Below, piece by piece: positions 10,142 to 29,602 of a stretch of 33,825 nt of DNA (position 1 is its first letter; every line of letters begins with the position of its first letter). The stretch comes from a virus (lineage: Duplodnaviria; Heunggongvirae; Uroviricota; Caudoviricetes). Location: positions 1 through 33,825 of the IMG/VR virus record IMGVR_UViG_2713896907_000008; one strand, given 5' to 3'. The position numbers and the translations under genes are program-made. The notes below the pieces were generated by a model that was given only the letters and a program-made list of their open reading frames with translations, did not search any database and was not told where the DNA came from.

Positions 10142-10708
10142 TCAGGGAGATTCATTGCTCTTATTTGCCGGAAATTTTCGATAAATGGTAGAAACGCCTA
10201 CATCAAAAATCAGTGCAATACGCTGTCTTGATTCTCCGGCCTTGAGTAAACGCCCAATCTGTGCCCACTGTTCGCTGGTCAACTTAGGACGGCGTCCACC
10301 TACTCTGCCTTTGGCACAAGCTGCAGCCAGCCCTGCCCTGGTACGTTCAACTATCAGTTCGCGTTCCATTTCAGCCAGGGCACCCATGACATGAAAAAAG
10401 AAACGGCCCATTGGGGTACTGGTATCAATACTGTCAGTCAGACTTCGGAAATTCACGCCGCGCTGGCGCAACTCTTCTATCAGCGTAACAAGATGCCGCA
10501 TACTGCGTCCCAACCTGTCCAGCTTCCAGACAACCAGCGTGTCTCCTGCCGATAGTGTCCTGAGTAGTTTTTTCAGCCCCGGTCTGTCGGACTTAGTGCC
10601 ACTGATTTTGTCCTCAAAAATCCGCTCACATCCCGCGCAGTTCAGTGCATTACGTTGCAAATCGGTGTTCTGGTCATTTGTTGACACGCGTACATAGCCA
10701 ATAAGCAT
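10142..10708 (-). CDS. serine DNA invertase (Gin/Pin/Cin/Hin family)
   Basis: MLIGYVRVSTNDQNTDLQRNAL ... SLTDSIDTSTPMGRFFFHVMGALAEMERELI is near-identical in its motifs to Mu Gin as I recall it. Start set at the ATG with an AGGGGA ribosome-binding site; the ORF track begins earlier at 10825. Confidence 0.9.
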   Translation of the reverse strand: MLIGYVRVSTNDQNTDLQRNALNCAGCERIFEDKISGTKSDRPGLKKLLRTLSAGDTLVVWKLDRLGRSMRHLVTLIEELRQRGVNFRSLTDSIDTSTPMGRFFFHVMGALAEMERELIVERTRAGLAAACAKGRVGGRRPKLTSEQWAQIGRLLKAGESRQRIALIFDVGVSTIYRKFPANKSNESP

Positions 10709-10735
10709 GATCAATCCCCTGAATAAAAACCGGGG

Positions 10736-11170
10736 ATGATGCCAGTTAGCCATTATCTCTGCATTTTCATAAACGTTGGTTTGGGAGAAGCGGCAAAACG
10801 GAATATCGGTGCTGGAGCCAATCAAGTCCCCGACATGTCCTTTTTTACATCAGCAAAGGGTGATAACGGATACTTTTCCTTACCGGACGGCACTATTGTG
10901 CAATATGGAAAAGCCACAACGATAAGAAATAATGAAATTAGCCTGGTAACTTTGCCATTTTCCTTTCCCACAAAGTTCTCTCAGGTACTGATAACCCATG
11001 ATGATGCCGCAACTACAAATGCAGTTGCTTTTGGCGCCGCCACTCCAAAAACTGTTTCAACATTTCAGGTTGTCGTGCAGAAACTAGATTTTAATACCGC
11101 CACTGGAGCTGTCACATTACGAACCACTGCTTCACCGTGCTACTTCCGTTATATCGCAATCGGGAGCTAA
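10736..11170 (+). CDS. alternative tail-fibre C-terminal segment, silent in this orientation
   Basis: No independent start context; shares GLGEAAK at the crossover site with the expressed fibre gene H, then diverges. Confidence 0.6.
   Translation: MMPVSHYLCIFINVGLGEAAKRNIGAGANQVPDMSFFTSAKGDNGYFSLPDGTIVQYGKATTIRNNEISLVTLPFSFPTKFSQVLITHDDAATTNAVAFGAATPKTVSTFQVVVQKLDFNTATGAVTLRTTASPCYFRYIAIGS
10764..10789. repeat. invertase crossover site, left (hix/gix-like, 12-2-12)
   Basis: TTTTCATAAACG TT GGTTTGGGAGAA; 23 bp (10776-10798) is a perfect inverted copy of 12137-12159. Confidence 0.7.
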
Positions 11171-11174
11171 TTTT

Positions 11175-11399
11175 ATGCAAAACAAATACAGTCCATCTAT
11201 GAATACGTTCTTTATGGCTGAATTTATGCGTCGTTACGAACAAGCTGGTACATTGCCTGATGATGCAATAGAGATACCCGATGAAGTATTTAAAGAATAC
11301 ACAGGGGAACCACCGGACGGAATGATGAGGGTTGCGGGTAGTGATGGTCTACCCGCATGGGCAGAAATTATTTACACTCAGGAACCATCGGCCAGATGA
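11175..11399 (+). CDS. alternative tail-fibre assembly chaperone, short (74 aa)
   Basis: N-terminal similarity to the 151-aa chaperone on the opposite strand (…GSDGLPAWAEI… versus …GDDGLPCWVDL…), but stops after 74 aa. Confidence 0.5.
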   Translation: MQNKYSPSMNTFFMAEFMRRYEQAGTLPDDAIEIPDEVFKEYTGEPPDGMMRVAGSDGLPAWAEIIYTQEPSAR

Positions 11400-11823
11400 T
11401 ATCAGGAGCACTGGAGGTATCAATCAGTTCCAGTGCGTCCAGATAATCCAGCCACAGATTATATTGCGCCAGTTCCTCACCTTTCAGACGCCCGATTGCT
11501 GCTTTGCCGGGCCACTGCTTGCTATTCATATAATCGTTGGCCTGGTCAATTCTCGACTGCTTTTCTGAGTCAGCCACTGCAAGTTGTTCTTCATGCGTAG
11601 GTGGCGGAAGATCTACCCAGCAAGGCAACCCATCATCACCAATGCTCCGCACTTTACCTTCGGGAGCTTCTCCCATGAAAACCAGCGCATCGGCAGCATT
11701 TATATTGATGCCGTCTGACGGCCATGTGCCAGCAGTTAAATAATCATCTTGTAGTGCTACAAGATAAAAAGCATTTTCAGCCGGGCTGAATACATAGTCG
11801 ACCATTAATATCCCACTCCCCAT
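11368..11823 (-). CDS. G: tail-fibre assembly protein G
   Basis: 151-aa ORF immediately after H, inside the invertible segment. Confidence 0.8.
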   Translation of the reverse strand: MGSGILMVDYVFSPAENAFYLVALQDDYLTAGTWPSDGININAADALVFMGEAPEGKVRSIGDDGLPCWVDLPPPTHEEQLAVADSEKQSRIDQANDYMNSKQWPGKAAIGRLKGEELAQYNLWLDYLDALELIDTSSAPDIIWPMVPECK

Positions 11824-13208
11824 ACTGCCACTGTTGAATTAGATTTCGTATATGCGCAAGCGGCTTTGAATTTGACCCGGTCAACAATCGCTGCGCTAAC
11901 AAAAGGAGCTCCATTAGTCGCGTAGATCACAGAATTGACCAGCGAAGGATTGATGGAAAGGCAAGCATTAGGAAAGGCAACCGGCCATGAGTCATCAACA
12001 ACGACCATATTACCGTCGGTAGATTGCGGCACTGATACCATCTTCCACTGAAGCAGTGCTGTTCGTTGTACTCCACCAATTAATACTGGAATAGTGATGT
12101 TACCTGCACTGCTGGCCAATGCTGTTGCAGCAGGCATTTTTGCCGCTTCTCCCAAACCAAGGTATGTGAGAAGACCAGCTACATCCTTTCCACTCAAATT
12201 AGTCAGCGTATTGTCCAGCGGTTGTTTACCTGCCAGTGCATTAAGCATTGTCGTGGCAAAGTTCGGGTCATTCCCCAGCGCCGCCGCCAGTTCGTTCAGT
12301 GTATCCAGTGCCGCAGGTGCAGAACCCACCATTGCCGCAATCGCCGATTTCACAAAAGCCGTAGTGGCAATCTGTGTATTGTTGACCGACTGCGCCGCCG
12401 TGGGGGCTGTTGGCGTTCCGGTGAGTGCCGGACTCGACAGTGGCGCTTTCAGTGCCAGCGCATTGTTAATGGTGGTACTGAATTTCGGATCATTGTTAAT
12501 GGCTACGGCTATTTCTTTCAGCGTGTCCAGCGTGGCTGGAGCACCATTAATAAGAGCCGTCAGTGCCGCCTGAACAAACGCGGTGGTCGCAACCTGCGTG
12601 GTGTTATTCCCCGCCGCTGGCGTTGGCGCTTTGGGGGTTCCGGTAAACGTCGGACTTTCTTTGGGTGCATACTGTGAATGCGGGTCCGGTGCGGCAAGAT
12701 GTTTTGCCATCAGGTCATCCACGTACACCTTCAGCTCCAGTGCCTTGTCATCCACATACTTGCGGGTTGCCAGCACTACGGCAGGGTCGATTTTCAGGGT
12801 GATATTGTCCGTGCTGCTGGTAATCAACACCATACGCACGGTCTGGGTACGCCCGCTGCCTTCAGCCAGTTGCGGCTTATAGCTTTCCGGGCAGTTGCCC
12901 ACGGCAATCAATGCCCCGGACTCATCAAACAGGCCCACTTCACGTATCCACCAACCGCCCTCGTTTTCAGGGATCACCTGTTCAGCAATAATCTGGCTGC
13001 TGTTCTGCGGGTCGATATAGAGCATATTCAGCGCAGCCCGGCGTTTCTCATTTACTAATGCTGTCTGCTTTGCGTTCGGCGTTGGCAATGTTCCGCCGCC
13101 ATCGCCGACCGCCATATGGGTAATTTTTAAAGGCACACCGAGCGCGGCGGCGCTGGCAAGTTTCGCCGCGCCAATATCCGTCAGCAGGGTATAAAATTTT
13201 GTGCTCAT
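11805..13208 (-). CDS. H: tail fibre protein H; the last ~118 codons lie inside the invertible segment
   Basis: 467-aa ORF with two copies of a fibre repeat (TTAFV…AP..LDTL.E.A.A..NDP.F.TT..NALA.K.PL); crossover site at 12147-12172. Confidence 0.85.
   Translation of the reverse strand: MSTKFYTLLTDIGAAKLASAAALGVPLKITHMAVGDGGGTLPTPNAKQTALVNEKRRAALNMLYIDPQNSSQIIAEQVIPENEGGWWIREVGLFDESGALIAVGNCPESYKPQLAEGSGRTQTVRMVLITSSTDNITLKIDPAVVLATRKYVDDKALELKVYVDDLMAKHLAAPDPHSQYAPKESPTFTGTPKAPTPAAGNNTTQVATTAFVQAALTALINGAPATLDTLKEIAVAINNDPKFSTTINNALALKAPLSSPALTGTPTAPTAAQSVNNTQIATTAFVKSAIAAMVGSAPAALDTLNELAAALGNDPNFATTMLNALAGKQPLDNTLTNLSGKDVAGLLTYLGLGEAAKMPAATALASSAGNITIPVLIGGVQRTALLQWKMVSVPQSTDGNMVVVDDSWPVAFPNACLSINPSLVNSVIYATNGAPFVSAAIVDRVKFKAACAYTKSNSTVAVWGVGY
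12147..12172. repeat. invertase crossover site, right (inside H)
   Basis: TTCTCCCAAACC AA GGTATGTGAGAA, inverted relative to the site at 10764-10789. Confidence 0.7.
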
Positions 13209-13810
13209 GGATTCACTCTCATTGTGTCAATAACATGGACCGCCCCGCCTTCATGCGCGGTGCCACCGGAAATAATCGTTTCGTTGATATACGGATAGAT
13301 CGTGATTTCTTCGCCAAGATAGCTGGCGGCTCCCACCCAATGCGGGCCGCTGGTCTGCAGATTGATGGACATGCCGATCATGTGGCGGCTACATGGTTTG
13401 GCATCGCTTATCAGTCGCTCAAGTTCCAGATAGGTATCTTCAGTGATGCCCTGGTCCTGCACGCCGATATCCAGGCGAAACGTGCCCGGTGCCTCTCCGG
13501 TCTGCCACCACTCAATAATGCGGATCAGAAAGCCGAACGGCTCCACCACCCGCCGCACGGCACTGGTGGTCCCTTTATGCTGATGAATATAAAAAGCATC
13601 CTTCACCACCTGGCGCTTGACGCTTTCTGTCCAGCCCTCGTCCCAGCGATCCACAGAGAACGCCCAGGCGAGATAAGGCAGGAAACTGACCGGACAGGTT
13701 GCCGGATTCCACAAGTCACGAAGCGGCACCTGCAGATCAGAAATCCCGCTGCAGGTTTGCGCCAGTCGGCGCTCCAGTGGTGTTGAACCCGGTGGCAGCA
13801 GACTATTCAT
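13205..13810 (-). CDS. I: baseplate assembly protein I
   Basis: 201-aa ORF, P2 order. Confidence 0.8.
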   Translation of the reverse strand: MNSLLPPGSTPLERRLAQTCSGISDLQVPLRDLWNPATCPVSFLPYLAWAFSVDRWDEGWTESVKRQVVKDAFYIHQHKGTTSAVRRVVEPFGFLIRIIEWWQTGEAPGTFRLDIGVQDQGITEDTYLELERLISDAKPCSRHMIGMSINLQTSGPHWVGAASYLGEEITIYPYINETIISGGTAHEGGAVHVIDTMRVNP

Positions 13811-14711
13811 CCGTTCCTCCGTTGGTTACGCTCCACTGCGTACATGATGCCGCCTGTGTTTTGTTCAGGACCACATCCGCCAGAGGAGAAGCCAGCTCCA
13901 CACGCTGCACACCTTCAACATGCAGGGCGGCAAAGATGGCGCTACGGCGAATATCCCGACCAAGACGCGTCTGACTGGCGATGTACTTCTGCAGGCTGGC
14001 TTTTGCCGCTGCCATTACCGGCTCTGCTTCCGGTCCAGGATAGAGAAAAATGGTGGCTTCCACGCGATACGGGATGATTTCTGCGCTGCAAACCGTCAGA
14101 CGGTCAGCCACCGGGCGGACGTTCTCACTGTTCAGAGCTTTTTTCACCACGTCCAGCAGGTCTTTTTCTGCAGTTCCATCGCCTTCGCGGCTAAGGACAG
14201 TCAGCACCACCTCTGCAGGTGCCGGGCTGGTTGCACTGGCATCCGCCACCCGACCGTCGGCGCTTCGGGCATGAAATTCATAAGCTGCAGTTGGCCCCGC
14301 AACTGAAAGCCCTTCAAAGGCTGCAGGCACACGCAGGCGTAACGCTTCATCGCTTTCCATCGCAGCTGCAACGGGCGGCACAGCGTCATTATCAGCAGGC
14401 GTCACCGTCAGGCGTTTCACGTTGTAGTTGGCAGCGAGCTGGTCAAGATCGCTGCCCATCGCGTAAGCCACCATCACAGCCTGCGCGGCTTCGTTAATGC
14501 GCTGGCGCAGAAGCAACTCACGGTAAGCGTTCTCCTGCAGCAATTTGGTGACGGGTTCAGATTCCAGTTCCAGCGTGCGGATCACTGCTTCCTGCTCATC
14601 TTTCGGATGAAGCGCAACAAATTCGGCCTTGCGTTCGGCAAGCAGCGTCTCAAAGTCCGGCACATCCACAATCTGCGGCGCAGGCAACTGCGAAAGGTCA
14701 ATCACTGCCAT
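13803..14711 (-). CDS. J: baseplate wedge protein J
   Basis: Start set at the internal ATG (MAVIDLSQL…) just after the W stop; the ORF track extends to 14750. Confidence 0.8.
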   Translation of the reverse strand: MAVIDLSQLPAPQIVDVPDFETLLAERKAEFVALHPKDEQEAVIRTLELESEPVTKLLQENAYRELLLRQRINEAAQAVMVAYAMGSDLDQLAANYNVKRLTVTPADNDAVPPVAAAMESDEALRLRVPAAFEGLSVAGPTAAYEFHARSADGRVADASATSPAPAEVVLTVLSREGDGTAEKDLLDVVKKALNSENVRPVADRLTVCSAEIIPYRVEATIFLYPGPEAEPVMAAAKASLQKYIASQTRLGRDIRRSAIFAALHVEGVQRVELASPLADVVLNKTQAASCTQWSVTNGGTDE

Positions 14712-15057
14712 TCTCTGCTCCTGTTGATACGGAAAGGGAAACAGGCACACCGTTATTACGCCGCCCGCTCAGCGCCACCACCATTGAACCGTCAAAATTG
14801 CTGTTGATGGTGATGGAATCCAGCGTCATCCGTGGCTCCCAGCGACTCAGCGCCACATACACTGCCGACATGACCTGCAGGCGCAATGCCGGATTTTGTG
14901 GCTGGTCTATCAGCGCCGACAGCAGGGAACCATATTCACGGCGAGCAATGCGGCTACCCTGCGGCGTCAGCAGAATGTCCCGCACCGATTGGCGCAGATG
15001 GTCAATATCAGTAATGGCTTTGCCGCTGGTATTGTTCATCCCGCTATAAAGCGTCAT
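14698..15057 (-). CDS. W: baseplate protein W
   Basis: 119-aa ORF, P2 order. Confidence 0.8.
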   Translation of the reverse strand: MTLYSGMNNTSGKAITDIDHLRQSVRDILLTPQGSRIARREYGSLLSALIDQPQNPALRLQVMSAVYVALSRWEPRMTLDSITINSNFDGSMVVALSGRRNNGVPVSLSVSTGAENGSD

Positions 15058-15632
15058 ACCGGGCCTCCGGTTGTGTCGCCGCCTTTCAGAACGCCAGTAT
15101 GCTGATGCGCATCAACCACGATCCCGTTAGAACTCATCGCTCCGCCGCCCTGGGTAACGCCACCATTGATCACCACTTCGCTGTTAATACGCGTGCAGTC
15201 AGCCTCCAGCACAAACTCACTGGTTTTCAGGGTGATATTGTCGGCGGCCTCAATGACCATTGATTTGATGCCCCTGACATACCAGCGCCCAGTGGCTGGT
15301 TCGTATTCAAACCAGCCGCCGTCCGGGTATTCCGTCACGTTGCCGTCCTCAGAGCCTGAAGGTGGCGGAAACTGGTTTGAGTAGACCGCAGGCAGGGCAA
15401 ACGCGGTTTCCAGATTGCCGCCAAGGCTGAACAGCACAACCTGCTCACCCACAGACGGTTTCCACCAGGTGCGCGATTTGCCCGCGCGCAGTGTCAGCCA
15501 GTTAATCCAGTTGGTTTCGAGGTCGCCAGTTTTCACCCGACACAGCCAGTTTGCCCTGTCCACTTCGGTGACTACACCTGTGCGGATCAGGTTGGTGATA
15601 AGGCGCATGATTTCGGTTAATTGTGCGTTCAT
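15054..15632 (-). CDS. V: baseplate spike/hub protein V
   Basis: 192-aa ORF; N-terminus resembles P2 gpV as I recall it. Confidence 0.8.
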   Translation of the reverse strand: MNAQLTEIMRLITNLIRTGVVTEVDRANWLCRVKTGDLETNWINWLTLRAGKSRTWWKPSVGEQVVLFSLGGNLETAFALPAVYSNQFPPPSGSEDGNVTEYPDGGWFEYEPATGRWYVRGIKSMVIEAADNITLKTSEFVLEADCTRINSEVVINGGVTQGGGAMSSNGIVVDAHQHTGVLKGGDTTGGPV

Positions 15633-21659: not shown

Positions 21660-23426
21660 ATGAACACCACACTGACACCCGCAGATCTCGATCCCCGTCG
21701 GCAGGCCATGCTGCTGTACTTTCAGGGATACCGCGTAGCCCGCATTGCTGAAATGCTGGGCGAGAAAGTTGCAACCGTTCACAGCTGGAAAAAACGCGAC
21801 AAGTGGGGTGACTATGGGCCGCTGGATCAGATGCAGCTCACCACCGCCGCCCGCTACTGCCAGCTCATTATGAAGGAGCACAAAGAAGGGAAAGATTTCA
21901 AAGAAATTGACCTGTTGGCGCGCCAGTCGGAGCGCCACGCGCGGATCGGCAAGTTTAACAATGGCGGCAACGAAGCCGACTTAAACCCTAACGTCGCCAA
22001 CCGCAACAAGGGCCCGCGCCGTCAGCCGGAAAAGAATGTTTTCACCGATGAACAGATTGAGAAACTGGAAGAAATCTTCCATTCCTCCATGTTCAACTAC
22101 CAGCGCCACTGGTGGGAAGCCGGAAAAACCAATCGCATCCGCAACCTGCTGAAGTCTCGCCAGATCGGCGCGACCTTTTACTTTGCCCGTGAAGCCCTGA
22201 TTGACGCCCTGCTGACCGGGCGTAACCAGATTTTCCTTTCTGCCAGCAAGGCTCAGGCCCACGTCTTTAAACAGTACATCATCGACTTTGCCAAAGAAGT
22301 GGAGGTGGAGCTGAAAGGCGATCCGATGGTGCTTCCTAACGGGGCCACGCTTTACTTCCTCGGCACCAATGCCCGCACGGCCCAGAGTTACCACGGCAAC
22401 CTGTATCTGGATGAATATTTCTGGATACCGAAATTCCAGGAGCTGCGCAAAGTGGCTTCCGGTATGGCTATTCACAAAAAATGGCGACAAACCTATTTTT
22501 CCACGCCATCCAGCCTGACACACAGTGCTTATCCGTTCTGGTCCGGTGCACTGTTCAACCGTGGGCGCAACAAAGCTGACAAGGTGGACATCGACCTGTC
22601 CCACAGCAATCTGGCCCCCGGCCTGCTGTGCGCGGACGGGCAATACCGCCAGATAGTCACCGTAGAAGATGCGGTGCGCGGCGGCTGTAACCTGTTCGAC
22701 CTTGACCAGTTGCGCATGGAGTACAGCCCGGACGAATACCAGAACCTGCTGATGTGCGAGTTTGTGGACGATCTCGCGTCCGTGTTTCCGCTCAGCGAGC
22801 TGCAGGCGTGCATGGTGGACAGTTGGGAAGTCTGGACCGACTTTCATGCTCTGGCCCTGCGCCCATTTGGCTGGCGCGAAGTGTGGATCGGTTATGACCC
22901 GGCAAAAGGTACGCAGAACGGCGACAGCGCCGGATGCGTGGTGGTGGCACCGCCAGCCGTGCCAGGCGGTAAGTTTCGCATTCTTGAGCGTCACCAGTGG
23001 CGCGGGATGGACTTCCGTGCCCAGGCGGACGCAATCAAAAAACTGACCGAGCAGTACAACGTGACCTACATCGGCATCGACTCAACCGGCGTTGGTCACG
23101 GGGTTTACGAGAACGTGAAAGCGTTCTTTCCTGCCGTCCGGGAGTTTGTCTACAACCCCAACGTTAAAAACGCCCTGGTACTCAAGGCCTACGACATTAT
23201 CAGCCACCGCCGTCTGGAGTTTGACGCCGGACACACCGACATAGCGCAGTCCTTTATGGCAATCCGTCGCTCCACCACCGCCAGTGGCAACCGCCCGACC
23301 TATGAAGCCAGCCGCAGCGAAGAAGCCAGCCACGCCGATCTGGCATGGGCAACGATGCACGCACTGTTTAACGAACCGCTGCAGGGCGAATCCGCCAATA
23401 CCAGCAATATTGTGGAGATTTTTTGA
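21660..23426 (+). CDS. P: terminase large subunit (ATPase/nuclease) P
   Basis: 588-aa ORF divergent from O, P2 order and size. Confidence 0.85.
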   Translation: MNTTLTPADLDPRRQAMLLYFQGYRVARIAEMLGEKVATVHSWKKRDKWGDYGPLDQMQLTTAARYCQLIMKEHKEGKDFKEIDLLARQSERHARIGKFNNGGNEADLNPNVANRNKGPRRQPEKNVFTDEQIEKLEEIFHSSMFNYQRHWWEAGKTNRIRNLLKSRQIGATFYFAREALIDALLTGRNQIFLSASKAQAHVFKQYIIDFAKEVEVELKGDPMVLPNGATLYFLGTNARTAQSYHGNLYLDEYFWIPKFQELRKVASGMAIHKKWRQTYFSTPSSLTHSAYPFWSGALFNRGRNKADKVDIDLSHSNLAPGLLCADGQYRQIVTVEDAVRGGCNLFDLDQLRMEYSPDEYQNLLMCEFVDDLASVFPLSELQACMVDSWEVWTDFHALALRPFGWREVWIGYDPAKGTQNGDSAGCVVVAPPAVPGGKFRILERHQWRGMDFRAQADAIKKLTEQYNVTYIGIDSTGVGHGVYENVKAFFPAVREFVYNPNVKNALVLKAYDIISHRRLEFDAGHTDIAQSFMAIRRSTTASGNRPTYEASRSEEASHADLAWATMHALFNEPLQGESANTSNIVEIF

Positions 23427-24451
23427 TGGGAAAGAGTAAGAAAAACCGCGCAGCGGCGATGAATCAGATCCAGCATAAAAGCCAGACTTCAGCCGAAGCA
23501 TTCAGCTTCGGCGATCCCGTTCCTGTTCTGGACCGTCGCGAACTGCTGGACTATGTGGAATGCGTACAGATGGACCGCTGGTATGAGCCGCCTGTGAGTT
23601 TCGACGGCCTGGCGCGAACATTCCGCGCCGCCGTACACCACAGCTCACCGATTGCAGTAAAGTGCAACATTCTGACCAGCACCTATATCCCTCACCCGCT
23701 GCTCAGCCAGCAGGCTTTTTCACGTTTTGTGCAGGACTATCTGGTATTTGGTAACGCCTACCTGGAGAAACGCACGAACCGCTTCGGTGAAGTTATCGCC
23801 CTTGAACCTGCGCTGGCAAAATACACCCGACGCGGGTTAGACCTGGATACCTACTGGTTTGTGCAATACGGCATGACTACGCAGCCGTATCAGTTCACGA
23901 AAGGCAGCATCTTTCATCTGATGGAACCGGATATCAACCAAGAGATCTACGGCCTGCCCGGTTATCTTTCTGCCATTCCGTCAGCCCTGCTCAACGAGTC
24001 CGCCACGTTGTTCCGCCGTAAGTATTACATCAACGGCAGCCATGCAGGCTTCATCATGTACATGACCGATGCCGCGCAGAATCAGGAGGATGTGAACAAC
24101 CTCCGCAACGCGATGAAAAGCGCCAAAGGTCCAGGCAACTTCCGCAACCTGTTTATGTACTCACCTAACGGCAAAAAAGACGGGCTTCAGATCATCCCAT
24201 TGTCAGAAGTCGCGGCGAAGGATGAATTTCTTAACATCAAGAACGTGAGTCGGGATGACATGATGGCAGCGCACCGCGTGCCGCCGCAAATGATGGGGAT
24301 TATGCCGAATAATGTTGGGGGGTTTGGGGATGTGGAGAAGGCGAGCTGCGTCTTCGTAAGAAATGAACTATTACCACTTCAAAAAAGATTCATGGAAATA
24401 AACAGATGGCTTGGTCATGAAATTATAAATTTTGAAACATATACATTATAA
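23423..24451 (+). CDS. Q: portal protein Q
   Basis: 342-aa ORF coupled to P, P2 order and size. Confidence 0.85.
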   Translation: MMGKSKKNRAAAMNQIQHKSQTSAEAFSFGDPVPVLDRRELLDYVECVQMDRWYEPPVSFDGLARTFRAAVHHSSPIAVKCNILTSTYIPHPLLSQQAFSRFVQDYLVFGNAYLEKRTNRFGEVIALEPALAKYTRRGLDLDTYWFVQYGMTTQPYQFTKGSIFHLMEPDINQEIYGLPGYLSAIPSALLNESATLFRRKYYINGSHAGFIMYMTDAAQNQEDVNNLRNAMKSAKGPGNFRNLFMYSPNGKKDGLQIIPLSEVAAKDEFLNIKNVSRDDMMAAHRVPPQMMGIMPNNVGGFGDVEKASCVFVRNELLPLQKRFMEINRWLGHEIINFETYTL

Positions 24452-24488: not shown

Positions 24489-25550
24489 TTAATATTCAAA
24501 ATTATTTTCTTCAATAGAGAATTCAATCCCTCGGGATAACTTATCAATATTCACATCAAATTCGATATCTGTTAATTCACCATTCTCGATTTCATACATA
24601 ACTTCAATCTCAATATCGAAACTAATCTCTTGAACTTCAGTTCGTGTGGTTGACTCCATTGGAATCATTACTTTATCTTCGCTATCCCAATACCCATTAT
24701 TAAAGTCTGGACCAGAAACAGTAACTTCAAAATCTACAGGAACAGAGAAGGTCGCTAGACAATAATTATTGTTAATCTTAATTATTGATGGTTCAAAGTC
24801 ATCAATATTGACGACTTCAAATGAATCCAATTCAGCGTCTTCCCAAGTTGAAACGTTATATCCATCGGCATCATTGAGTTGGGCAATTACGTCCGCTCTT
24901 ATGTCTTCACGTTTGCTTTCGATAAACTGCATCAATTTATTACTTAATTCGTTTGTATGCGTATTGTATTCACCTAGAAACTTATCAAGTGAATCAACTT
25001 GATGAAGATTGTTTTTACCATCACAATAATTTTTTAAGTCACTATCCTCAGAAATGATATACACATCTTCATCATTAACAAATCGCTCTACCGCAGCTAA
25101 AGTGATTGCATCAGGAAACTCACTCTTTTTCTTATTTTGCCCAAATGGTGGTTCTTTGCCAAAGTATTTATCTAAAATCTCATTAAGATCTATCACTTCT
25201 ATTGGAGCTAATTTGGCGTGACATCCTTTCAAAAAATCATCAAAAACTTTTTGTGCTGCTTCGTGAATTTCATGTTCGTTAAATTGCTGAAAAAAACCAT
25301 GGAGCGGTCCATTATCAATACTATTCAAAAGCCTAGCTTTTCTTTGTACTGTGTTTATAGCCTGCAGAGCATCCTTTATTGATTCCTCTATTTTACCTTT
25401 TACTTCTCTCTCTACAACTGTAGTTGTAATTAAGACTAAATCACCTTTCGCACATAATTCATGGAAAGCTTTAAATGCTACCCCCTCAAAATGAAGACCA
25501 GCCTTTACGTACGTTTGTGTGTCAATAAATACCTTATTTGTTTTAAGCAT
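24489..25550 (-). CDS. cargo protein, 353 aa: PIN-like N-terminal domain plus acidic C-terminal domain of unknown function; candidate defence/abortive-infection nuclease
   Basis: AT-rich relative to flanking phage genes; own AGGA ribosome-binding site and terminator. Candidate PIN acidic residues: D in VFIDTQ, E in REVKGKIEE, D in EFPDAITL, D in IISEDSDL. Confidence 0.6.
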   Translation of the reverse strand: MLKTNKVFIDTQTYVKAGLHFEGVAFKAFHELCAKGDLVLITTTVVEREVKGKIEESIKDALQAINTVQRKARLLNSIDNGPLHGFFQQFNEHEIHEAAQKVFDDFLKGCHAKLAPIEVIDLNEILDKYFGKEPPFGQNKKKSEFPDAITLAAVERFVNDEDVYIISEDSDLKNYCDGKNNLHQVDSLDKFLGEYNTHTNELSNKLMQFIESKREDIRADVIAQLNDADGYNVSTWEDAELDSFEVVNIDDFEPSIIKINNNYCLATFSVPVDFEVTVSGPDFNNGYWDSEDKVMIPMESTTRTEVQEISFDIEIEVMYEIENGELTDIEFDVNIDKLSRGIEFSIEENNFEY

Positions 25551-25676: not shown

Positions 25677-25695
25677 CTCGTATCCCCGCCACGCC
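25677..25695 (-). other. candidate cos cohesive-end site
   Basis: Minus strand reads GGCGTGGCGGGGATACGAG; the first 13 nt match the P2/186 cohesive end as I recall it (GGCG(A/T)GGCGGGGAAAGCA-). Confidence 0.45.
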
Positions 25696-26074
25696 TGCCC
25701 GCTTTATGCAGTGGTTTTCATGCACATGCATGACATGAGCAAAAGCCCGCCAGTTCTGGCGGATCTGAGCAAAGACGATCCTCAATCGATCATGCGATTT
25801 CATGCAGCATAGTCATGCACTGTCAAGGAAGTGAAAATCCGTATCTGAATGGCCACTTGAAAAACGGATCATACGGGTTTACAAAGATGAATGTTCGCTG
25901 TGAACGGGAAGCGGAAGTTAGCTTTCAGATAACATAATCCATATGCACGAGAACCTCTAAAATAGAATGGGACACCTAAGCGGGGTACTTACAACGATTC
26001 TTTCCATATTCACAGTTAACACTCTGTTTGGCGTATTTTTATTCAAATAGCAAACACCAATAAAAGGAGTTTCC

Positions 26075-26410
26075 ATGAACAATATTCCCCCTATACCACA
26101 GTTAGGAATTTATGTCTCAAAAATCGATCCCACCCTACGTATCACTGTAACCGATGTTGATATTGTTGATGGTGAGGATGATTCTCCTGATGATGAATTG
26201 TTTTATTTAGTCCACTGGATCGAGGGGGAAGATGAAAGTGATATGACAGCAATGGGATTTGAGCTAGACCCAGTAGAGTGGCAGGCTTTCGTTGAATCTG
26301 AGCAATTAGTGTTTGAGCGTGATCCGTACATGGATTCAATCCCCGAAAATTCAAATTTGGCAAAGATTCGGGATTTTCTCATGAAGACTAAACAGAATGA
26401 TCATTCGTAA
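26075..26410 (+). CDS. hypothetical acidic protein, 111 aa
   Basis: AAAGGAG ribosome-binding site; very Asp/Glu-rich; occupies the position of P2 old/tin between cos and the SOS genes. Confidence 0.55.
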   Translation: MNNIPPIPQLGIYVSKIDPTLRITVTDVDIVDGEDDSPDDELFYLVHWIEGEDESDMTAMGFELDPVEWQAFVESEQLVFERDPYMDSIPENSNLAKIRDFLMKTKQNDHS

Positions 26411-26602
26411 GTGTAAGCATTCATCAGGAAAATGGTTTTGTAAGTGAATCATCAACTTTTAGAGAGTCTCAGACACTCCCACTTCTGCTTCTGACACAAA
26501 GCGGACGATCACTTATCAAAATAACCGCCCACCTTACGCCTTATTTCACTCATTGCCCAAACTAGCCCCCATCAGAATGAATCCTCCTGGGGGCAACGTT
26601 TC

Positions 26603-26836
26603 TTAATGCAGCCAGCTGTCGTCCTCCCACACCTTCTGCATAATTTTCATCACTTGTTTTCTTTCTTCATCCAGTTGCAGTCCGGTTAGTTCCACACCGT
26701 TAGAGCTACCTTTGCGAATGCGAATTACCGTTTTGGGATACAGGGGGCGCAGATTGCGGTAAAGCTCGGATTCAAGGGCGTCCAGGGTAGACTGGCTAAT
26801 CTTCTGCTCTTTATCGATCATTATTTCAATGCGCAT
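26603..26836 (-). CDS. dinI: DinI-family protein
   Basis: MRIEIMIDKEQ…KIMQKVWEDDSWL matches the DinI pattern; own GAGGTG ribosome-binding site overlapping the upstream stop. Confidence 0.75.
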   Translation of the reverse strand: MRIEIMIDKEQKISQSTLDALESELYRNLRPLYPKTVIRIRKGSSNGVELTGLQLDEERKQVMKIMQKVWEDDSWLH

Positions 26837-26846
26837 AAAAGTCACC

Positions 26847-27035
26847 TCAGCTGATGACATCCATTGAGCGGTTGTATTCGTGGCTTCTGATTTTTGCCAT
26901 AAGTTCATCAGTCAATTCAGAAACCCACTGCAGAGCCAGCCCCTTCTCTTCATCACTACACTCACTAGCCGCTACAAGCTTAAGAAAAAAATCAATGCGC
27001 TGAAGCTTCAAAGACTCCAAAAAATAGTCCTGCAT
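26847..27035 (-). CDS. small protein, possibly the N-terminal part of a Tum-like antirepressor
   Basis: 62-aa ORF with an AGGAGG ribosome-binding site, about 41 bp downstream of a LexA box. Confidence 0.45.
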   Translation of the reverse strand: MQDYFLESLKLQRIDFFLKLVAASECSDEEKGLALQWVSELTDELMAKIRSHEYNRSMDVIS

Positions 27036-27075: not shown

Positions 27076-27095
27076 CACTGTTTATATTTACAGTA
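27076..27095. promoter_or_regulatory. LexA (SOS) box
   Basis: CACTGTTTATATTTACAGTA: CTGT-N8-ACAG with an AT-rich spacer, upstream of the minus-strand 62-aa/DinI pair. Confidence 0.7.
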
Positions 27096-27187: not shown

Positions 27188-29602
27188 TTAATACAGGTTC
27201 CGCCACTTATCATCTTCCTTCAGACGCTGGTTCCGATAGAAGATACGCAGGCCTGCTCCTGACGGAATACTGCCGCCGCGAAGGAGCAAATCGACTTCTT
27301 TCTCGCTGCCATCAAATCCCCTGGACTTCAGTTCATAGACGAGCTGCTGTCGCTGATGGTCTGTAATTCGCTGTTTGTAGTCTTTACGCCGTTTCGGTTT
27401 CACCTGGCGTAACCTTGCAGCCAGTTCCCGGCGCTCTTTTTTGCTCATACTGTGCAGGTAATCGTGCAACTCCTTGTCATTCATACGGGTAATATCCGTT
27501 CTGGAGTCCCCATCAGCTGATTTGTCTTTCCCTTGTTGGTTCAAATTTTCAGCAAGGGGACAGTTATTGCCACGAGTCCAAGGGGCGCAAGCGCCCTGGT
27601 CGGCTGCCGCCTCCTGAACGTCAACGGCCTTACGAACCATTTTCCACTTCACTGCATGAGTGCAGATCTTGCCCTCTGCAATGGGTGACCAGATGCCATA
27701 AATACGAATACCGTGATCGCCATAGGCGGTCGGCTCTTCGTTAATTTCATAAGCGGTTCTGATGAGGTGATATTTACGGGGAACCAGTACACCTCCCTGC
27801 TTCATGATATAGGTGGCAAAACAACCAGCATCAGCAGCAGCCAGAATGGCATCAAGGCGCGGGTTATCCAGTACCGGCACACCTGCTTTTTTGTCACCCT
27901 GCTGCCTTGCCGCCTGACCAGCCAGCAATCGCAGTTCACGGTAAGCCTGACGCCCCGGAATACCAAAGAAGCGGAATTGCTGAACACGATGCAAAGACGC
28001 CCAGGCATTCACGTATTCAGCGTTATCACGAAGAGATTTACCCGTTTCCTTGCTGATCTCGCCAGCCAGACCACGCCCGTCAATGTTCTTACTGATGTAT
28101 TTCGCTATGTAGCTTGTCGGCGTTCCTTTGCGCGGGTTAATCAGCTCAGACTTAAAGCGCGGCCCCGTGTTATTGCCCAGCTCCTCGCGGTCTTCACGGA
28201 TAGCAAACTTACGCAACAATGCAGTAATGGCGCGGCGGTCTTTTTTGCGCATGAAACACAACAGGTGCCAGTGAACTGTGCCGTCGTGATGCGGCTCAGC
28301 CACCCGCACGCCATACCAGCGCAACCCGGCTTTGTGCATCGCCTTACGAAATGCAGCAAACATACCGACCAGATAATCGCTGCTTTGTCTTACCGTCGCG
28401 TTTTTCCAGGTCGGGTTGGGTCTGCCGTTATTGAGCGTGGAATGGAAACGTGACGGACAGGTAATGGTGTAGAAAACGGCGCAGTCACCGCGCATTTCCG
28501 CGATAAGCTCCAGACCTTTAACACAGGCCATCATCTCATTGCGGCGATGCGCCGGGTTGCTGCAGCTGGCGTTTACCACATCTTCCATATCCAGCGCGTC
28601 TCCGTCTTCGTTCACCAGTTCATGAGAACGGAAAAACTCCAGCGACTTACGGCGCTGCTCACGTTTATGCATCACAGCTTCATAGCTGACATAGGGAGAT
28701 GCTTTTTTGCTGACCAGGCAGACAGCACGCAACTGCTCTTCCCGCCATTCGCAACGCATCTTCCACAATTTCCGATACCACCAGTCGGCGCACAGCATAC
28801 GCGCCAGCGAGCCCGGAATGAGTTCATAGGGCACTGGTTTACGGCGGTTTCTTTTCCGACGGAGTTGCTCAAACGCAGGCGGGATGACATCCAAACGTAG
28901 GGTTTCCGCTGCCACCTTTTCCCATGTCTTGCGGATTTCTTCTGGCTTAACATCATCGGTGGCGTACAAATCACCACAAGCGGCATCAAGACACATGCTC
29001 ATATGCGCAGCGACAAGGGTAGACAGGCGTTTCACCTGATCCTGACTCATTTCAGGCAGGATCAGCAGGCCGTCCAGCCCTTCATGGCTTGCCATAAAGC
29101 GAAAAGAAGTGGATAGCTGACTGTCGCGTACATGCTCCAGTCGTTCCAGACATGGCTTAATCGTCTCACGCAAATAGCGGGAATAAGCCTTTGGCCTGCC
29201 CAAGCTGCTGAAGTATTCAATACGTTGCATCAGCGGCTTGCTGATATGGGAAGGCTGGGCGTTGACGTCAGCCAGAATGACCATGTCTGGATTAAAACGC
29301 TGCTGCTCATGCGCCAGCTTTGCCCGGCTAATGAGCTTATCCTGCTCCATTTCGCGCTGGACAGGATCACGGGATTCATTAAAGAAATAACGCTCCCAGA
29401 CCTGCTCACTCAGTGCCTCGCGGCGCAGTTGTTCCTGCTCGTTATCGGCAACATACAGAGTGATCAGGTTTGAAAGTGCAGACTCCGGCGCAACTTCCGC
29501 CGGGTCCAGATAAGGGTTAATGGCCTTTTTCGGGCCGTTCCATGAAAATGATGCAGCGGCCTCGTTAAAGCCGCTAGAGTTGCTCATATCGTCATGACTC
29601 AT
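27188..29602 (-). CDS. A: replication initiation protein A (rolling-circle type)
   Basis: 804-aa ORF at the end of the early operon; size and position as P2 gpA. Confidence 0.8.

Follow-up and report, generated by a model that had tools for sequence, protein, structure and literature searches.

Phages of the P2 family are documented to carry anti-phage genes in a hotspot between gpA and gpQ (PMC9122126; PMC9519451). The window analysed here, a stretch of 33,825 nucleotides representing a 186/P2-like prophage, encodes an unusually small and acidic occupant of this interval, a protein of 111 amino acids, on the plus strand at positions 26075-26410. An initial annotation assigned this gene to the position that the superinfection-exclusion genes old and tin hold in P2, and proposed that its product could be a DNA mimic or anti-restriction factor, or the partner of a PIN-like protein encoded across cos. 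Our analyses place the gene in the family DUF8087 (PF26332 / phrog_17127) and make it very probable that it is a stand-alone accessory ('moron') gene, carried in a cassette of about 550 bp that comprises a leader, the ORF and an integrase stub. It would have been cargo of a P2-like lysogeny operon that moved to genomic islands and to the cos-proximal hotspot of 186-like prophages of E. coli, where it is independent of the cargo across cos.

A cargo gene in the old/tin position

The backbone around the gene is that of a 186/P2-like phage. Terminase and portal genes (21660-24451, the portal alone at 23423-24451) are followed on the minus strand by a PIN_12 gene for a protein of 353 amino acids (24489-25550) and by the cos cohesive end GGCGTGGCGGGGATACGAG (25677-25695, minus strand), which is identical to the cos of phage 186 at 15 of 19 positions, the first 13 bases all matching. 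On the other side of the DUF8087 gene lie a DinI-like gene (26603-26908, minus strand; Pfam DinI, E 1.2e-22), the gene of the replication endonuclease gpA (27188-29602, minus strand) with a Dam gene next to it and, at the end of the window, a 186-type CI. The distance from cos to the start of the DUF8087 ORF is 380 bp. The genes old and tin are likewise cos-proximal in the P2 record, where they read inward and converge with gene A, their mRNA starting about 150-170 bp from cosR. The geometry of the DUF8087 gene relative to cos is thus that of old and tin, whose position it had been proposed to share: both occupy the slot between gpA and cos, read inward, converge with the early/replication operon and are replaceable cargo. 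The likeness does not extend to the products. Old, with 586 amino acids, is an ATPase-TOPRIM nuclease and Tin has 253 amino acids, whereas the DUF8087 protein has 111, is acidic and non-enzymatic, and shares no sequence or domain similarity with either; an exclusion phenotype is known for the P2 genes only.

The SOS control ascribed to the neighbouring genes is plausible. A perfect match to the LexA-type box, CTGTTTATATTTACAG, stands at 27078-27093 ahead of an operon formed by a 62-aa ORF and the DinI-like (Tum-like) gene, and is consistent with SOS induction of this operon in the style of 186, although one such match may easily arise by chance: 38 of 100 shuffled sequences contained at least one. 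Between the convergent DUF8087 and DinI-like genes, the backbone also contains a GC-rich hairpin (GCCCCCA...TGGGGGC, 26565-26594), which might serve as a bidirectional terminator. The 56-nt stretch that includes it (26555-26610) folds at -15.8 kcal/mol; the strict scan did not call the hairpin because its loop exceeds 8 nt.

Comparison with sister prophages of E. coli, in which the slot is empty or differently filled, delimits the whole insertion to 25822-26592, as backbone homology ends at 25821-25910 and restarts at 26494-26593. The same flanks enclose HEPN, DUF2971, HNH or DUF6236 genes, or nothing, in these relatives. The DUF8087 ORF therefore lies between gpQ (portal) and gpA, adjoining cos, in a slot whose occupancy varies among syntenic prophages, as is expected of hotspot cargo.

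The ORF is clearly more than a chance reading frame. Its ATG at 26075 is preceded, 5 nt upstream, by the Shine-Dalgarno sequence AAGGAG (26064-26069, plus strand), in agreement with the strong ribosome-binding site noted initially, and this element is kept as AAAGGA or AAGGAG in most copies of the cassette. Matches were found to 61 protein clusters (E <= 0.01), the indels in the alignment of these homologues preserve the reading frame, and pairwise dN/dS values among cassette copies range from 0.07 to 0.23. This purifying selection, together with the conserved acidity described below, rules out a non-functional hitchhiking ORF.

The PIN_12 gene on the other side of cos had been a candidate for a functional partner, of which DUF8087 could be, for example, the antitoxin. 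Its 353-aa product has an N-terminal PIN_12 domain (E 2e-26), a C-terminal half with no assigned domain and no hit in PADLOC. The two genes are close in the window and both are low in GC (34% for the PIN gene and 40% for the DUF8087 ORF, against 51.6% for the whole window), but they are divergent and cos separates them, and the co-occurrence analysis revealed no conserved linkage. Among complete E. coli genomes, 36 have the PIN gene, and 137 E. coli records contain the closely related form of the cassette, yet the two adjoin in only 1 of 5426 genomes. Of 35 IMG/VR loci, 26 are arranged as portal, variable cargo, cos, DUF8087, DinI, gpA, and in these 26 viral contigs at least 17 different cargo arrangements face DUF8087 across cos: PIN accounts for 2 of the contigs, DprA for 4 and retron Ec86 for 2, others carry another retron-RT-like protein or one of several large unassigned proteins, and one locus is empty. 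Conversely, the PIN gene coexists with HEPN, HNH, DUF2971 or DUF6236 genes, or with nothing, in the DinI-side slot, and no PIN gene was found near the DUF8087 homologues of other genera. Table S5 of Rousset et al. already lists the DUF8087 protein (WP_001059830/31, 'hypothetical') at the cos-proximal position both with and without PIN_12. A partnership between the two proteins is thus refuted by their distribution. We consider the PIN gene instead as a candidate single-gene defence cargo of a Q-side sub-slot that varies independently of the DUF8087 side. Of the interpretation originally given to this locus, the slot and the acidity have stood, and the PIN link has not.

An acidic family with a predicted SH3-like fold

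DUF8087 is a catalogued family, found here in a known kind of locus. The profile phrog_17127, annotated as 'unknown function', matches residues 1-111 of the 111 with an E-value of 2e-70, and in a search of 5.8 billion proteins all 61 homologous clusters carry a precomputed PF26332 hit, one of them being 98% identical to the window protein; the members whose source is named all come from Enterobacterales. RefSeq labels as 'DUF8087 domain-containing protein' the orthologue encoded in a 99.1%-identical E. coli locus, the proteins being about 98% identical. A local copy of Pfam that lacks the DUF8087 model and NCBIfam gave no hit, no PADLOC model matches the protein and, beyond the table of Rousset et al., we found no paper on DUF8087, PF26332, phrog_17127, WP_001059830/31 or the presumed BL21 locus tags.

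An alignment of 52 sequences, with identities as low as about 30%, shows P8, G11 and W69 to be invariant and Y13, S15, V25, V28, V46, D56, E63, V73 and L78 to be conserved in at least 90%. The window protein has each of these residues and all the core motifs of the family (P8, G11-x-Y-V-S, F/Y-L-V, D56, E63 and W69). Distant relatives of 70-106 amino acids (30-45% identity) have only the core residues 5-80 in common with it. Some distant members are decorated: in P0072, P0074, P0075, P0080 and P0084 a basic N-terminal extension, MGxAKxRG(T/S/N)xExR(I/V)xQA, is fused to the acidic core, and at locus L021 an N-terminally extended member is encoded between an integrase gene and an HTH_17 (AlpA-like) gene.

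The very high Asp/Glu content reported for the window protein was confirmed by computation. Asp (15 residues) and Glu (11) make up 23.4% of it, whereas Lys+Arg number 7; it has a pI of 4.05 and a net charge of -19.3 at pH 7, and both acidic runs, DGEDDSPDDE and EGEDESD, are present. Full-length relatives, down to about 30% identity, are all acidic as well (median pI 4.09, 22% Asp+Glu), whereas the first acidic loop ranges among relatives from absent to about 11 residues. Acidity is thus a property under selection, but the loop as such is not a precise structure.

AlphaFold2, supplied with a diverse alignment, predicts the protein with a pLDDT of 83.5 and a pTM of 0.70, and an earlier model from a shallower alignment has the same topology. 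The modelled strands (residues 11-15, 22-31, 43-50, 61-64 and 78-82) and helices (66-76 and, at the C-terminus, 94-109) make up a predicted SH3-like beta-barrel, a fold class common among binding modules, and no enzyme-like features were found in the model. The best structural matches are the small beta-barrels of DUF1653, FeoA, DtxR-SH3, Tudor and CarD-N, with which the model has in common the five-stranded SH3-like barrel over 48-66 aligned residues. The acidic loop (residues 32-42) is modelled with low confidence (pLDDT of about 60).

These properties bear directly on the proposal of a DNA mimic, in which the protein would inhibit one of the DNA-binding defences of the host (type I restriction-modification, RecBCD or BREX, for example) and thereby shield the phage genome on entry or on induction. 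Ocr, ArdA, Arn and gp5.9 are precedents for anti-defence by DNA mimicry. Like Ocr (T7 gp0.3) and ArdA, the DUF8087 protein is small, mobile-element-borne and of very high negative charge density, and its family-wide acidity, with a charge of -19 and 23% Asp+Glu, is a necessary property of such a mimic but not a specific one; its gene adjoins cos and has its own ribosome-binding site. The comparison with the folds of Ocr and ArdA went against the proposal, as neither is an SH3-like barrel and the predicted DUF8087 barrel resembles neither of them; no sequence or fold similarity links the family to any known mimic. The main acidic loop is, moreover, flexible, variable in length and missing in some relatives, which speaks indirectly against carboxylates held rigidly at the spacing of DNA phosphates. 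A different precedent comes from Myxococcus xanthus, whose antirepressor CarS is a small acidic protein of SH3 topology that mimics operator DNA and sequesters a DNA-binding protein (PMC2926617). No specific similarity was detected between CarS and DUF8087, but CarS makes a decoy mechanism feasible for this fold class.

A cassette derived from a lysogeny operon

Comparison of the DUF8087 loci identifies the gene as a mobile single-gene cassette made of a 178-bp leader, the ORF and a 16-codon integrase stub. The conserved non-coding leader (25897-26074, plus strand) is 81-86% identical to the copies in other genera. Its divergence (14-19%) is below that of the synonymous sites of the ORF (dS 0.29-0.44), a hint that the leader may work as a promoter or 5' UTR. 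The sole promoter candidate within the cassette is weak: TTCACA (26009-26014) and TATTTT (26034-26039), separated by a 19-nt spacer, were retrieved with a relaxed score, and the strict scan for sigma-70 promoters found none on the plus strand. A structured RNA in the leader was rejected, as the 178 bp gave no hit in Rfam and no covariation (0 of 37 pairs).

At its other end, the ORF overlaps the fossil 5' stub of a P2-type integrase gene (26397-26447, plus strand), whose translation MIIRKCKHSSGKWFCK* compares with the integrase N-terminus MTVRKLPSGKWLCQ. The overlap is the same as that formed with the intact int gene in lysogeny operons. Homology among cassettes stops at 26446, and the segment 25896/25912-26446 of the window is 85-86% identical to a genomic island of Morganella and to contig L009. 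The cassette also exists in Serratia, Symbiopectobacterium, Lonsdalea and Proteus, and longer decayed integrase stubs are found in other copies (L047-L049, L009, L015 and L016).

P2-like prophages found in Klebsiella aerogenes and in Buttiauxella preserve the likely source of the stub, as do several contigs from IMG/VR and from metagenomes. There, an HTH repressor, an Flk_N-type tail-anchored membrane protein (phrog_5825), DUF8087 and an integrase are encoded in this order on a single strand, DUF8087 overlapping the start of int. In total, 13 loci from several lineages have DUF8087 between Flk_N and int on the strand of the repressor. The homologues from lysogeny operons are the most divergent (54-77% identity), for which reason we regard the operon as ancestral and the cassette as taken from it later; the integrase stub proves this direction of transfer, the cassette having been excised from a repressor-Flk_N-DUF8087-int operon. 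The Flk_N-type protein itself carries an Ant/ORF6C-like segment. At locus L019, a distant homologue (P0068, 6001-6309) stands alone beside pgsA-uvrC-uvrY, the integration site of the K. aerogenes P2-like prophage, and might be all that remains of a decayed prophage.

Even in this ancestral setting, DUF8087 is cargo. Of 12 other Flk_N loci, 10 have something else between Flk_N and int; among five of these 10 that we examined, four encode proteins of about 290 amino acids, which look BRCT-like by eye, and one a protein of 137 amino acids. Judged by its contents, the Flk_N-int interval (about 3600-4540 in L063-L074; 7343-8327 in L003) is a second variable cargo slot of P2-like phages with an Flk_N-type protein, of which slot we found no description in the hotspot literature. 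An obligate pairing of Flk_N and DUF8087 was therefore rejected, and DUF8087 is cargo in both settings.

The operon nonetheless suggests two further functions. DUF8087 could modulate integration and excision or the lysogenic switch, as an integrase-binding factor or as a decoy of a repressor or antirepressor. The stop-start overlap with int has the geometry of translational coupling and persists even with the fossil stub, a distant homologue has an integrase gene on one side and an AlpA/HTH_17 excisionase-like gene on the other, and the acidic SH3-like CarS sequesters the recognition helix of a repressor (PMC2926617). Against this, the gene is conserved beside a dead int stub, and on unrelated backbones equipped with a 186-type CI of their own and, presumably, with an integrase of their own outside the window; as the Flk_N-int interval holds unrelated genes in sister phages, DUF8087 is dispensable for that integrase. 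We consider such a role very unlikely. Alternatively, a small single-pass membrane protein could have DUF8087 as its soluble partner (antitoxin, immunity protein or regulator), the copy in the window being a leftover or an anti-addiction module. The lambda genes rexB (membrane) and rexA (soluble) are co-transcribed with the repressor, and the ancestral DUF8087 setting resembles them in placing genes for a membrane and a soluble protein in the repressor operon; they are not homologous to Flk_N and DUF8087, whose association is not obligate, and the window copy has no membrane partner.

Membrane proteins do recur near the gene. Besides the Flk_N-type protein directly upstream in the 13 loci, phrog_26730 (127 amino acids, with an N-terminal TM segment) is encoded after the cassette in L009, L015 (10538-10921), L016, L047-49 (6538-6918), L053 and L060 (9698-10081), and a different TM ORF of 87 amino acids lies downstream in L014; L060 is the only locus inspected of the roughly 84%-identical form, for whose 85 E. 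coli records it stands. These neighbours differ in family and in side, however, Flk_N occurs without DUF8087 in the 10 loci mentioned above, and adjacency may be due to chance, given how often mobile elements carry small TM ORFs. The window cassette has no phrog_26730 beside it. Copies that lack any membrane neighbour, in 137 E. coli records as well as in Morganella and Serratia, are still under purifying selection, which also speaks against a membrane partner. A membrane partner is quite unlikely on this balance. The low dN/dS values imply that the protein is maintained even where only a dead int stub accompanies it.

The family is rare. DUF8087 is known from prophages, IMG/VR contigs, genomic islands and one plasmid, and the cassette or gene has spread over at least 10 genera of Enterobacterales. 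It is present in 5 of 185,579 species-representative genomes and in 1 of 72,556 PLSDB plasmids, an exhaustive profile search of 1.84 billion proteins gave 34 clusters at 50% identity, and tblastn against 50,697 INPHARED records of phage isolates found no match. The cassette is carried by 228 of 5426 complete E. coli genomes (about 4%). A form with at least 95% identity occurs in 137 E. coli records, in the cos slot in all those inspected, and the form with about 84% identity in 85. The single locus of the latter that we inspected, in E. coli ST648 (L060), is a genomic island in which the cassette is followed by the 127-aa TM protein and by a 1589-aa SF1 helicase.

Several well-known strains are among the carriers. 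E. coli B REL606 (L023, 889084-889419) and BL21(DE3) have a 99.5%-identical cassette with retron Ec86 across cos, and EPEC E2348/69 (L024, 862646-862981) has it at cos with a DprA gene opposite; the cassettes of REL606 and E2348/69 are 99.5-99.8% identical to the window at the nucleotide level. The location of retron Ec86 in a P2-like prophage has been noted before (bioRxiv 10.1101/2020.06.22.160242). Two of the islands place the cassette in other company: in L006 it adjoins the gene (4242-7751) of a 1169-aa protein with AAA_11/AAA_12 (SF1 helicase) and PLD nuclease domains, and in L060 it is next to that (10634-15403) of the 1589-aa protein, which combines Sacsin and SF1 helicase domains. Both look like defence genes.

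Genomic context also helps to weigh the DNA mimic. The islands of Morganella and Proteus that contain DUF8087 have an Antirestriction (ArdB/KlcA-type) gene as well, which favours it. A repressor-integrase operon, by contrast, would be an unusual ancestral place for an anti-restriction gene, such genes being early ones, and anti-defence genes are reported to be rare among P2-like phages (PMC13586616). The strains that carry the cassette provide a further argument. E. coli B restricts unmodified DNA normally, and it does so with the cassette in its genome, which makes a constitutively active inhibitor of type I restriction unlikely. We thus rank an anti-defence DNA mimic second among the possible roles and regard it as unlikely.

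A possible role in phage-phage conflict

The role that we favour, tentatively, is that of a non-enzymatic acidic decoy or exclusion factor, expressed in the lysogen and acting in conflicts between phages. Transcription in the lysogen would have been ensured ancestrally by the repressor operon and, in the window, by a promoter of its own on the cos side, as for old and tin. The product would be a small cytoplasmic SH3-like beta-barrel devoid of catalytic features, whose conserved and strongly negative surface and floppy acidic loop might sequester a positively charged, probably nucleic-acid-binding, protein. The cargo slots suggest that such a target would belong to a competing phage or mobile element. 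Tin is thought to bind a nucleic-acid-binding protein of a phage, and the logic proposed for DUF8087 would be analogous: a stoichiometric exclusion or decoy that resembles Tin in its logic and not by homology.

Several observations favour the decoy. The protein remains under purifying selection when separated from the neighbours it first had, its acidity is a family trait, the predicted fold is SH3-like, and the gene has the position and orientation of old. Its slot is exchanged with other cargo in a published defence hotspot, and its neighbours in islands are of defence type. Its location on the repressor strand in 13 loci, the cargo nature of the Flk_N-int interval and the integrase stub count in favour of the decoy as well. 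The decoy is weakened by the promoter evidence (the 19-nt spacer and the failure of the strict scan on the plus strand) and by the lack of literature on the family and of a PADLOC model. Defence effectors that are single small soluble proteins are also unusual, and adjacency to defence genes would suit an anti-defence or regulatory role as well. E. coli B strains are the classical permissive hosts of T1-T7; as they carry the cassette, a broad activity against T phages is unlikely, and exclusion by DUF8087 would have to be narrow, silent in these strains, or aimed at temperate phages or satellites.

A bolder and quite unlikely reading would make DUF8087 the founder of a new class of acidic SH3-like decoys of mobile elements, active in either of two roles in BL21(DE3), REL606 and EPEC E2348/69. 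It might be the first DNA mimic with an anti-defence role in the P2 family, or it might counteract a protein of the nucleoid or of gene silencing, H-NS for example, and so lift the silencing of the neighbouring AT-rich defence cargo.

The cos-proximal hotspot of P2-like phages is among the richest known sources of anti-phage genes, and many of its occupants are still annotated as 'hypothetical'. DUF8087 is an unusual one, tiny, non-enzymatic and extremely acidic, and it has been retained while the defence cargo across cos was swapped in at least 17 arrangements. It has moved between two cargo slots, both probably expressed in the lysogen, and into genomic islands across at least 10 genera of Enterobacterales, and the integrase stub that it took along is a clean example of cargo shuttling between hotspots. 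The presence of the cassette in BL21(DE3), REL606 and E2348/69 makes its function directly testable in standard strains. A negative outcome would mean that not all hotspot cargo is immunity, whereas a defence, counter-defence or counter-silencing activity, if true, would add a new mechanism based on a small protein.
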